A DNA stretch of 64,000 bases, taken from assembly GCF_024700885.2 (NCBI RefSeq), contig NZ_CP117016.1. One strand, written 5' to 3'. The stretch comes from Escherichia coli. GTDB taxonomy: Bacteria; Pseudomonadota; Gammaproteobacteria; Enterobacterales; Enterobacteriaceae. Numbering within the stretch: position 1 is the first letter of the stretch; each line of letters starts with the position of its first letter. A program made the translations under genes and the position numbers. Under the pieces are notes generated by a model, which saw nothing but the letters and a program-made list of their open reading frames with translations, was not told the origin of the DNA and searched no databases. Positions 22,988 through 29,763 of this stretch are shown piece by piece.

Positions 22988-23005
22988 GCCTGATGCGACG
23001 CTAGT
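22988..23005. repeat. Left half of a REP/palindromic unit interrupted by the IS insertion
   Basis: gcctgatgcgacgctagt; together with 24438-24459 it reconstitutes a REP of the same type as the intact copy at 46393-46428. Confidence 0.6.
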
Positions 23006-23047
23006 TGAACTGCACCCCAAATGTTGGACATAATCTGACATCTGAAG

Positions 23048-23578
23048 GTGCAGTTTATGAAACATTCATTTGAAGTAAAACTTGCCGCTGTAAATCATTA
23101 CCTGGCCGGTCATGCAGGCATCATTTCTACGGCAAAACTCTTTCAACTTTCTCACACCAGCCTCTCACACTGGATTAATCTTTTTCTTCTTCACGGTCCT
23201 CGGGCACTGGATTGCAGACACAAGCGTAGCTATTCTCCTGAAGATAAACTTTGCGTGGTTCTTTATGCTCTCGGGCATTCTGAGTCTCTACCCCGGGTAG
23301 CTGCCCGGTTTAACATTCCCAGCCACAACACGGTTAAAAACTGGATAAAAGGCTACCGCAAATCTGGTAATGAGGCCTTTATCAGGCGCAGGAAGGAGAA
23401 AAGCATGACCCGTTCTGATGATACCCATGAAAACGAGGCAAACATGACGCCGGAAGAGATGAAGAATGAGCTGCGTTATCTTCGCGCAGAAAATGCATAT
23501 CTGAAAGCCATGCAGGAGCATCTCCTGGAAAAAAAGCGCCAGGAGCTGGAGAAAAAACGAAAGTCATCCGGAGCCTGA
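23048..23578 (+). CDS. IS3-family transposase OrfA (HTH DNA-binding part)
   Basis: 176-aa ORF with HTH and leucine-zipper-like C-terminus; A6C slippery run at 23552-23558 near its 3' end. Confidence 0.8.
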   Translation: MQFMKHSFEVKLAAVNHYLAGHAGIISTAKLFQLSHTSLSHWINLFLLHGPRALDCRHKRSYSPEDKLCVVLYALGHSESLPRVAARFNIPSHNTVKNWIKGYRKSGNEAFIRRRKEKSMTRSDDTHENEANMTPEEMKNELRYLRAENAYLKAMQEHLLEKKRQELEKKRKSSGA

Positions 23579-23682
23579 GGTGCGGACACTGCCAGCCTGA
23601 CCTGTTAAAGGCTGCAGGGCTGGCCAGAAGCACGCTGTACTACCAGCTGTCACTGCAGAAGGCTAAGGACAAGTATGCTGAT

Positions 23683-24535
<853 letters not shown>

Positions 24536-24540
24536 TTGAA

Positions 24541-25788
<1,248 letters not shown>

Positions 25789-25791
25789 CTA

Positions 25792-25813
25792 AAACATAGC
25801 CTTTGCTATGTTT
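25792..25813 (-). promoter_or_regulatory. MntR operator palindrome in the mntH leader
   Basis: AAACATAGC-N4-GCTATGTTT perfect inverted repeat 13-34 nt upstream of the mntH ATG, between the likely -10 and the SD. Confidence 0.6.
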
Positions 25814-25828
25814 CATGCTATGCTAAAC

Positions 25829-25845
25829 GATAATGATTATCAAAT
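25829..25845 (-). promoter_or_regulatory. Fur box in the mntH promoter
   Basis: GATAATGATTATCAAAT closely matches the Fur consensus GATAATGATAATCATTATC. Confidence 0.5.
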
Positions 25846-26114
25846 TCATTTAAATGGGTTGTGGTGATTTCTCTGATAGACCAGGATTATGACTACGAAA
25901 AGATTGATGACTTGAATGTTATGGTTATGTTTAATGTTAGCACATTTACATAACTTTCAGCTTTCATACACAACATAGCAGAAATGTATGACAGCTCACT
26001 ATTTTTGAAGCTTGTCACAGGACGTCATTATAGTGTGTGTCAGATCTCGTTTTCCTTAACCATGTTACATAGAATGTGCACGGAAATTTAACCTGCCTCA
26101 TATTTGGAGCAAAT

Positions 26115-27317
26115 ATGGACCGCGTCCTTCATTTTGTACTGGCACTTGCCGTTGTTGCGATTCTCGCACTGCTGGTAAGCAGCGACCGCAAAAAAATTCG
26201 TATCCGTTATGTTATTCAACTGCTTGTTATCGAAGTGTTACTGGCGTGGTTCTTCCTGAACTCCGACGTTGGTTTAGGCTTCGTGAAAGGCTTCTCCGAA
26301 ATGTTCGAAAAACTGCTCGGATTTGCCAACGAAGGGACTAACTTCGTCTTTGGTAGCATGAATGATCAAGGCCTGGCATTCTTCTTCCTGAAAGTGCTGT
26401 GCCCAATCGTCTTTATCTCTGCATTGATCGGTATTCTCCAGCACATTCGCGTGTTGCCGGTGATTATCCGCGCAATTGGTTTCCTGCTCTCCAAAGTCAA
26501 CGGCATGGGCAAACTGGAATCCTTTAACGCCGTCAGCTCCCTGATTCTTGGTCAGTCTGAAAACTTTATTGCCTATAAAGATATCCTTGGCAAAATCTCC
26601 CGTAACCGTATGTACACCATGGCAGCAACGGCGATGTCCACCGTGTCGATGTCCATCGTTGGTGCATACATGACCATGCTGGAACCGAAATACGTCGTTG
26701 CAGCGCTGGTACTGAACATGTTCAGCACCTTTATCGTGCTGTCGCTGATCAACCCTTACCGTGTTGATGCCAGCGAAGAGAACATTCAGATGTCCAACCT
26801 GCACGAAGGTCAGAGCTTCTTCGAAATGCTGGGTGAATACATTCTGGCAGGTTTCAAAGTTGCCATTATCGTTGCCGCAATGCTGATCGGCTTTATCGCC
26901 CTGATCGCCGCGCTGAACGCACTGTTTGCTACCGTGACTGGCTGGTTTGGCTACAGCATCTCCTTCCAGGGCATCCTGGGCTACATCTTCTATCCGATTG
27001 CATGGGTGATGGGTGTTCCTTCCAGTGAAGCACTGCAAGTGGGCAGTATCATGGCGACCAAACTGGTTTCCAACGAGTTCGTTGCGATGATGGATCTGCA
27101 GAAAATTGCTTCCACGCTCTCTCCGCGTGCTGAAGGCATCATCTCTGTGTTCCTGGTTTCCTTCGCTAACTTCTCTTCAATCGGGATTATCGCAGGTGCA
27201 GTTAAAGGCCTGAATGAAGAGCAAGGTAACGTGGTTTCTCGCTTCGGTCTGAAACTGGTTTACGGCTCTACCCTGGTGAGTGTGCTGTCTGCGTCAATCG
27301 CAGCACTGGTGCTGTAA
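26115..27317 (+). CDS. nupC: Nucleoside:H+ symporter (CNT family)
   Basis: [36 protein letters not shown] at 26115 gives the expected 400 aa (six-frame ORF starts at 26076). Confidence 0.85.
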
Positions 27318-27327
27318 AACCATACAT

Positions 27328-27358
27328 AAAAAAGCCGGGGATCATTCCCCGGCTTTTT
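27328..27358. terminator. Bidirectional rho-independent terminator between convergent nupC and yfeA/pdeA
   Basis: aaaaaa-GCCGGGGA-tcat-TCCCCGGC-tttttt. Confidence 0.65.
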
Positions 27359-27366
27359 TACGCCTG

Positions 27367-29556
27367 TTAATCAGCTAATGGCTGCGGGCGACCAATCAAA
27401 TACCCTTGCAGATATTGCACCCCGAGCTTATGCAATAGCGCCTGCTGCTGTTGCGTCTCGACAAACTCCGCGACCACACTCAATGACTTCGCTTTCGCCA
27501 GATCGGTAATTGATCTCACAATCATCGCATCCAGCGTATTCGTGACGATATCTTTCACAAAGACACCATCAATTTTGATGATATCAGCCTGCAAACGCTT
27601 TAACCGTTCGTAGTTGGCATAGCCGGTGCCAAAGTCATCAATCGCAATCCGGAAGCCAAACTTATGCAGTTGCTCGATGTTGTACATGCTGCTTTCTGCG
27701 TTAGAAAACGCCTGCTCCTCGGTGATCTCAAGAATGACCGCCTGCGGGGAGATGTGATAACGCTTAAACAGACGAATAATCCGCCCGGCAATATTCTTTT
27801 GCAGCAGCGTGAGCGGCATTAAATTGACTGAAAAGCGCGGACCTTTTTTGTCGCAAGGGTGTGTTGCCAGCCACTTCAACAAGGATTCCAGCACTTGCAA
27901 ATCAAAACGCGCGCTAAGGTTAAACTGAGCAATAAGGGGCAGAAACTTATCCGGGGTCATAATGCCGCCGTCATATTTCAGTCGCGCGAGGATTTCATCA
28001 TAACCTTCACCCTCTTTGTTGCGAATTGGCTGGGCGTAGAGCAGCAAATCCCCCTGATCTAACGCCGTGCGAATGGTATTCAGCAATAGCACCTGTTTAG
28101 TGGTCTGCCCGGAAACCATCTCCTCTCTGCTATCCAGCGCCAGCACATGATGATGTGCACAGGATTGCTCCGCCAGCCAGCTTAACTGCCCCAACAAGGG
28201 TTGCAGGGTTTCCTGATTTCCATCAAAACGCCCCCAGGCAGCACCATAGCCCATATCCAGCCCGGTATTGTTCCAGTGAATTTGCCGACTATTCAGGATG
28301 TTAACCATATGCTGGAGTCGCCCTTCCGTTTCCGGCCCGCTCAGCACTAACAGCAGTTCACTACCCGGCAATTGATACAACTTTTCGTTTTCCTGCATCA
28401 ACGGCAGCAGCGTACGGTAAATTGATCGGATACAGTGAACGCGCATCATTAAGCCGTAATGACGACTCATAAACTCAAGATTATCAATGCGCAGGCAGCA
28501 AAAACTCTTGCCCGCCTCTTGCTCCGGCGCTTGTTCTAACGCACGAAAGTTGGGTAGGAGCGTTAACGGATCGGTCAGCGCCTGCAAATGCCAGCGGCGA
28601 TTAAGCCATTCACTGCGATGATAAATGCGCACCATATAGAGCAGGCAAACGCTAAAGGAAATCAGCACCGCGAGAATAAATGCCAGCGAATATTCGGTTT
28701 CCACCCCTTGCAAAAAGTTCTGGTTGTAATTCAGAAGGCAAAGCGTTGAAACAGCCCAGGTGAGATTTAAAAACGGATAGCGGAGCTTACCGACCCCGAG
28801 GGTAAAGATAATGAAGAAAACGGGCACCAGGTAACCGGCAATAAAGTCATTTTCATACGGTGTGCACAGCAGAAGTAGCAGCACGCTTAACGCTGCCAGC
28901 CAGCTTAAGGTAAATGCGCGTTTCTCTTTGCCCAACGACGGAGCGATATCCCTGCGCCACAATATCTGCGCAAAGTGGGGACTTACAATCATGCGAGTGA
29001 GATAGTAGAAAAGCATGTTGTAAATCAGCACAGCGGTGAAAAGGCTTAGTAAATCAACGACTGTGAAAATGGCATCCGCATCGCCGAAAAAGGTGGATAT
29101 CTTTAGCGGGAAATCAAAAAAGCTCCCCACAAGATACATGCTGCATTTGATGCCGATCGGCGTCACCAAACCAAGCCAGAAAAGACGTTGCCAGACATAT
29201 CGGCTGGTCAATCCATAACGCCAACGCGTCCCCAGCTGCCAGCGTAATATTGCGCAGGCACACAACACCACAAACGTCTGGCTGCCGAGCATGACCGCGG
29301 TCTGTAAAAAAGAGAGATGAAAGTTCCACAGATTGGTGCAAAACATCCCGCATAAAACGGGAACGACACCGCGCCAGCCAAAGATAAACAAGATTGACAG
29401 CATTACGCACAGTGGCATCCACGCCAGAAAGATATAACTGGAATGGATAATGGCAAGTGGCGAAATAAAACGGGATAGCTGAATAAGTACCACGGTGAGC
29501 GTAAACGCTAGTGTGAATATCTTGATATTTTTTATCAGGTTATGCTCCACAAACAT
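27367..29556 (-). CDS. pdeA: Membrane-anchored c-di-GMP phosphodiesterase (EAL domain with degenerate GGDEF)
   Basis: Multi-TM N-terminus, C-terminal EAL motifs; internal ATG at 29556 gives the expected 729 aa (six-frame ORF extends to 29616); also known as yfeA. Confidence 0.8.
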   Translation of the reverse strand: MFVEHNLIKNIKIFTLAFTLTVVLIQLSRFISPLAIIHSSYIFLAWMPLCVMLSILFIFGWRGVVPVLCGMFCTNLWNFHLSFLQTAVMLGSQTFVVLCACAILRWQLGTRWRYGLTSRYVWQRLFWLGLVTPIGIKCSMYLVGSFFDFPLKISTFFGDADAIFTVVDLLSLFTAVLIYNMLFYYLTRMIVSPHFAQILWRRDIAPSLGKEKRAFTLSWLAALSVLLLLLCTPYENDFIAGYLVPVFFIIFTLGVGKLRYPFLNLTWAVSTLCLLNYNQNFLQGVETEYSLAFILAVLISFSVCLLYMVRIYHRSEWLNRRWHLQALTDPLTLLPNFRALEQAPEQEAGKSFCCLRIDNLEFMSRHYGLMMRVHCIRSIYRTLLPLMQENEKLYQLPGSELLLVLSGPETEGRLQHMVNILNSRQIHWNNTGLDMGYGAAWGRFDGNQETLQPLLGQLSWLAEQSCAHHHVLALDSREEMVSGQTTKQVLLLNTIRTALDQGDLLLYAQPIRNKEGEGYDEILARLKYDGGIMTPDKFLPLIAQFNLSARFDLQVLESLLKWLATHPCDKKGPRFSVNLMPLTLLQKNIAGRIIRLFKRYHISPQAVILEITEEQAFSNAESSMYNIEQLHKFGFRIAIDDFGTGYANYERLKRLQADIIKIDGVFVKDIVTNTLDAMIVRSITDLAKAKSLSVVAEFVETQQQQALLHKLGVQYLQGYLIGRPQPLAD

Positions 29557-29763
29557 GAGTACACTACTCTCACTGATCGGGGTTTTCAGGCACACAAATA
29601 ATAAGTTTATTCGCATCGCGAAGCAAACAGGGGCCAGCCTGTTGCCGATTTTTCATCCAATGATGCTTTCACCAGGCGGCGCTAACCCGGACGTAGACTG
29701 TATTACAAAAGCGGCAAAAAGCAGAGACAAAAAACCCCCGCTTTACAGCGAGGGTTTGAAATT

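Follow-up and report, generated by a model that had tools for sequence, protein, structure and literature searches.

A sigma-70 promoter with candidate MntR, Fur, and OxyR sites upstream of mntH in Escherichia coli

Control of the manganese importer gene mntH by MntR, Fur, and OxyR is a standard example that ties manganese import to iron status and peroxide stress. Promoters of mntH in E. coli K-12 and Salmonella Typhimurium are reportedly the subject of studies by Patzer & Hantke in 2001, Kehres et al. in 2000 and 2002, and Ikeda et al. in 2005. MntR of E. coli and Salmonella acts at an inverted repeat in the mntH promoter (PMC3327659). Mn-MntR and Fe-Fur repress the gene independently of each other, and separate sites of MntR, Fur, and OxyR are present in its promoter (PMC8632737). 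In addition, an mntH-lacZ fusion is repressed by Fur (PMC4676285). The MntR/Fur architecture of mntH is already known, and we take control by MntR, Fur, and OxyR from the literature; the exact transcription start, the steric mechanism, and the coordinates of the OxyR site were inferred in this study.

Besides mntH, the established targets of MntR in the literature are mntS and mntP. A palindrome scan of the K-12 mntS-mntR region places the box of rybA/mntS, AGATATAGCACAGGCTATATTA, across the 5' end of the transcript. For K-12 mntP, the scan places two boxes, GAATTTAGCCAAAGCTATGTTT and AGACATAGCTTAGGCTATATTA, ~360-420 bp upstream of the CDS. The boxes of mntH, mntS, and mntP have the common core ATAGC-N4-GCTAT and A/T-rich outer arms. 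Like the mntS box, that of mntH overlaps the 5' end of its own transcript, although for mntH this end is predicted. The mntP boxes differ in their distance from the CDS, which fits activation, the role described in the literature, and not repression. The mntH box alone is a perfect palindrome, whereas those of mntS and mntP have 3-4 mismatches.

The mntH locus described here is in a 64,000-nucleotide stretch of E. coli DNA, hereafter the window. The list of open reading frames and the annotation of matching genomes identify the DNA around the promoter as the divergent mntH-nupC intergenic region of E. coli. The ATG of mntH is at 25779 on the minus strand, so that upstream corresponds to higher coordinates; nupC is on the plus strand and begins at 26076. 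The encoded protein is identical to K-12 MntH at 410 of 412 residues, and matching E. coli genomes carry the annotation mntH for the gene. A 401-bp region that includes the promoter is matched in 5424 of 5426 complete E. coli genomes. Relative to K-12, the locus is the same, the palindrome, -10, -35, and Shine-Dalgarno are identical, and the order of elements is shared: OxyR, Fur with -35, -10, MntR with +1, and Shine-Dalgarno (table 1).

Table 1. Features in and around the mntH control region, with positions in the window
Feature	Position	Strand	Description or basis
mntH CDS	24541-25779	minus	Intact, 412 aa, Nramp-family Mn2+/H+ importer; open reading frame list and K-12 comparison
Shine-Dalgarno	25786-25790	minus	AGAGG, 6 nt before the mntH ATG; read from sequence
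Candidate MntR operator	25792-25813		Perfect palindrome AAACATAGC-AAAG-GCTATGTTT (mntH strand), overlaps predicted +1; exact match, conservation, and literature
Predicted transcription start	25807-25809 (~25808)	minus	6-8 nt past -10; deduced from promoter scan
-10 hexamer	25815-25820	minus	TAGCAT; promoter scan
ypeD remnant	25823-25849	minus	8 codons versus 29 in K-12; ATG at 25849, stop TAG at 25825-25823
Candidate Fur box	25828-25847	minus	19-mer GAATTTGATAATCATTATC (25847-25829) and 7-1-7 core TGATAATCATTATCG (25842-25828)
-35 hexamer	25838-25843	minus	TTGATA, inside Fur box; promoter scan, 17-bp spacer
Putative OxyR site	25854-25890	minus	ATAATCCTGGTCTAT-CAGAGAA-ATCACCACAACCCAT, directly upstream of -35; position and conservation
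Second intergenic inverted repeat	25959-25996		nupC side; 12-nt arms AGCTTTCATACA / TGTATGACAGCT, 14 nt between

We consider it very likely that this region is the known mntH control region of E. coli, consisting of a sigma-70 promoter and two sites for metal-dependent repressors. In a promoter scan, TTGATA-17 bp-TAGCAT was the sole sigma-70-like promoter on the mntH strand of the region. Conservation was evaluated in 80 Enterobacteriaceae loci, with one genome per species and MntH identities of 88-99%; the set includes, among other genera, Escherichia, Citrobacter, Salmonella, Enterobacter, Klebsiella, Kluyvera, Buttiauxella, Atlantibacter, Kosakonia, and Raoultella. An alignment of the 200 bp preceding the mntH ATG was compared to the window. 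Mean identities are 1.0 for the -35 hexamer, 0.955 for the palindrome, 0.93 for the -10 hexamer, and 0.87 for the Fur 19-mer, and they range from 0.42 to 0.59 in intergenic DNA further upstream. The Shine-Dalgarno AGAGG is conserved at a frequency of at least 0.9 across the 80 species.

The mntH-nupC intergenic region contains just two short inverted repeats. The palindrome is the promoter-proximal one, and the other is on the nupC side at a distance of 150 bp. Read on the plus strand, AAACATAGC-CTTT-GCTATGTTT is matched exactly and is the sole match at up to 3 mismatches in the 64-kb window, with 0.04 expected; no further match is present in the window even at up to 4 mismatches. It starts one base past the -10 hexamer, spans the predicted +1, and stops one base before the Shine-Dalgarno, and hence is located, as the original prediction had it, between the -10 and the ribosome-binding site of mntH. 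That prediction also described the palindrome as an element of the leader. This is accurate as to its position between the -10 and Shine-Dalgarno, but because the palindrome overlaps the predicted +1, it is better described as a start-site operator than as a leader element.

Across species, all 80 loci have the palindrome upstream of mntH, and in 79 of these it is 9-13 nt from the ATG. Its 5' arm AAACATAGC does not vary, and 79 of the 80 loci retain the AAAG spacer. The 3' arm varies at three positions only, yielding the forms GCTATGTTT, GCTATATTT, GCTATATCT, GCTATATTA, and GCTATATCA. A full-text literature search for the half-site AAACATAGC returned unrelated papers only. The palindrome combines a match to the MntR box, a location at the promoter and start of a manganese-homeostasis gene, and conservation at the level of sequence, and assignment of 25792-25813 as the MntR operator is supported on these grounds.

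If fully transcribed, a perfect inverted repeat of 9 bp around a 4-nt loop could also fold, and the palindrome could in principle be an RNA hairpin in the 5' leader of mntH that acts as an attenuator, stabilizer, or metal-sensing element instead of a DNA operator. Manganese riboswitches precede manganese transporter genes in some bacteria, and yybP-ykoY is mentioned for mntP in the literature. However, compensatory changes are absent at every pair (covariation score of 0), and the three pairs that vary do so only by breaking, for example from C-G to C-A in 27 of 38 distinct sequences. The AAAG loop is conserved as strongly as the stem, and since the predicted start is within the 5' arm, only ~5 bp could form. 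The predicted fold of the leader is no better than that of shuffled sequence (z = 0.23), an Rfam search yielded no family match (best E = 2.8, with a score well under the gathering cutoff), and a scan of the promoter region for a terminator found none, with no T-run after the palindrome. Conservation of the sequence of arm and spacer, without compensatory variation, instead indicates a site bound by a protein. A cis-acting leader RNA is barely credible as an explanation and was rejected for lack of covariation, lack of an Rfam match, and a fold no better than that of shuffles. The palindrome is therefore best regarded as a candidate MntR operator on DNA.

Exactly 15 bp (25814-25828) separate the palindrome from a second motif. 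The 13-mer GATAATGATTATC is matched exactly at 25829-25841, with 0.07 matches expected at up to one mismatch, and this agrees with the original prediction of a Fur-type string ~15 bp further upstream. The span of 25792-25845 that was assigned to the two motifs contains both strings, but it stops 2 bp short of the end of the 19-bp Fur box, which extends to 25847. This 19-mer, GAATTTGATAATCATTATC, matches the Fur consensus GATAATGATAATCATTATC at 16 of 19 positions and is unique in the 64-kb window, where 0.01 are expected. The 7-1-7 form of the Fur site, TGATAATnATTATCA, is matched at 25828-25842 with one mismatch. The box covers the -35 TTGATA and 10 bp of the 17-bp spacer. In this respect mntH resembles classical Fur boxes at sigma-70 promoters, such as those of fepA-fes, fhuA, and cir, which have an array of GATAAT-type hexamers, or a 7-1-7 inverted repeat, over the -35 and spacer. 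It differs from these in being a small cluster (two walkers, 25 bp in K-12) and in having the site of a second metal-dependent repressor 15 bp downstream.

Of the Fur clusters, 83% overlap a promoter (Chen et al. 2007, PMC2189734). An alternative is that the Fur-like sequence is only an AT-rich -35 and spacer, and that iron controls mntH indirectly or from another site. Consistent with this, the best-conserved part of the box, TTGATA, is the -35 hexamer, whose conservation is expected from the promoter alone, and the mntH site is listed with neither a footprint nor a gel shift in the table of Chen et al. (2007, PMC2189734). However, conservation extends into the spacer, where the ATCATT-TC portion of the box is found at frequencies of at least 0.8 across species; it counts in favor of a Fur site because a promoter alone imposes little constraint on these positions. 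The quality and uniqueness of the 16/19 match likewise argue against a fortuitous resemblance. Moreover, in K-12, the information-theory model of Fur identifies an mntH cluster of two sites in 25 bp, the strongest of which, at 19.9 bits, has position -56 relative to the start codon (Chen et al. 2007, PMC2189734). In the window, -56 corresponds to 25835, the central base of the GATAATGATTATC 13-mer. Finally, ChIP-exo and expression data from nine E. coli strains include mntH in the core Fur regulon (PMC10164565). We thus regard an incidental AT-rich promoter sequence as very unlikely. The match to the consensus, overlap with promoter elements, and coincidence with the published K-12 model site support 25828-25847 as the Fur box of mntH. 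Together, the motif matches, conservation in 80 loci, the K-12 Fur model site at -56, and the literature bear out the dual manganese/iron control that was originally read from the DNA. A reading of raw sequence thus recovered a textbook regulatory architecture, and beyond that the recovery is of little importance.

Conservation of the region could alternatively reflect selection on a small protein rather than on binding sites for regulators. In K-12, ypeD (b4819) is annotated across exactly the same DNA; it has 29 codons and continues through both operators from a start that precedes the mntH ATG by 70 nt. According to the literature, K-12 ypeD is detected by ribosome profiling with translation from its ATG, and homologues occur in Salmonella and Citrobacter. 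The ypeD ATG (25849) is upstream of the predicted mntH start, and translation from it in K-12 therefore implies an additional, upstream transcript. In the window, though, the intact 29-codon frame is absent, as G to A at 25824 changes codon 9 from TGG to TAG and leaves 8 codons. Over the 80 loci, the frame and length of ypeD also shift (8, 11, 23, 24, 25, 29, or 31 aa), or the ATG is absent, while the DNA motifs are fixed. The conserved residues of YpeD are merely translations of the Fur box (NLIIIL) and the MntR box (KHSKGYV), and the DNA sites hence account for its apparent conservation. Coding constraint on ypeD is highly improbable as the cause of conservation and was rejected because its frame and length are unstable over the 80 loci. 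The cross-genus footprint thus shows that this annotated small ORF is not conserved as a protein, and we continue to interpret the conserved stretch as sites for Fur and MntR.

OxyR is probably a third input to the promoter, one that the original prediction did not include. The 25854-25890 segment matches the OxyR consensus (ATAGnTnnnAnCTAT-N7-ATAGnTnnnAnCTAT; four ATAG-type elements with 10-bp spacing) at 13 of 20 positions, but this score is shared by 11 places in the window and alone is not discriminating. In the tetrad form of the site, the segment matches at 12 of 16 positions, as does only one other place in the window. Over the same alignment columns, the cross-species consensus matches the OxyR consensus at 15 of 20 positions, and a conserved island, CTATCAGAGAAATCA, is located within the putative site at 25879-25865. 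The putative site abuts the -35 hexamer, stopping 10 bp short of it at 25854. On the basis of its position and conservation, and not its match to the consensus, the segment is probably the OxyR site reported in the literature for the mntH promoter.

The locations of these sites relative to promoter elements suggest how each regulator could act. When manganese is plentiful, a dimer of Mn2+-MntR would occupy 25792-25813, covering the start point and the first ~17 transcribed bases. MntR at the start point would be expected to block initiation by, or escape of, RNA polymerase. When iron is plentiful, Fe2+-Fur would occupy 25828-25847, covering the -35 and half of the spacer, and would keep polymerase off the promoter. 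Repression by MntR and Fur is independent, and the 15-bp gap between their non-overlapping sites fits with this. Under peroxide stress, oxidized OxyR most likely activates the promoter from ~25854-25890.

Relative to that of K-12, the promoter in the window has two substitutions, C to A at 25831 and G to A at 25824, the latter located in the promoter spacer and creating the stop codon in ypeD. K-12 and 78 of 80 other species have a C at 25831. The A in the window raises the match of the Fur box to the consensus to 16/19, compared to 15/19 in K-12, and completes a GATAAT-C-ATTATC dyad. Because C is found at this position in 78 of the 80 other species, the perfect dyad is a derived allele. Its distribution is narrow, with the exact 63-bp promoter sequence present in 26 of 5426 complete E. 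coli genomes. It is possible, though in our judgment unlikely, that this rare allele (A at 25831 and A at 25824) alters regulation in its lineage, such that mntH is repressed by iron more tightly than in K-12 and YpeD is also abolished. If so, either YpeD is dispensable or its "conservation" is a by-product of overlapping operator DNA. A rare natural allele with a better Fur box could also provide a natural test of operator strength.

Other features of the locus were observed on both sides of mntH. On the nupC side, the second intergenic inverted repeat is a short way upstream of a promoter-like sequence, with its -35 at 26005 and its -10 ending at 26034, and may be a CRP/CytR-type site for nupC. 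The immediate neighbor of nupC, which ends at 27317, is pdeA/yfeA (27367-29616, minus strand), with 27318-27366 between them; K-12 MG1655 has a copy of IS186 between nupC and pdeA/yfeA that is absent from the window. On the other side, an inserted IS3-family element (~23000-24430, plus strand) separates ypeC from the 3' end of mntH. The element has two transposase ORFs, 23048-23578 and 23683-24405, and is annotated as IS1397 in matching genomes. A few E. coli genomes with the same 401-bp mntH promoter region share this insertion.
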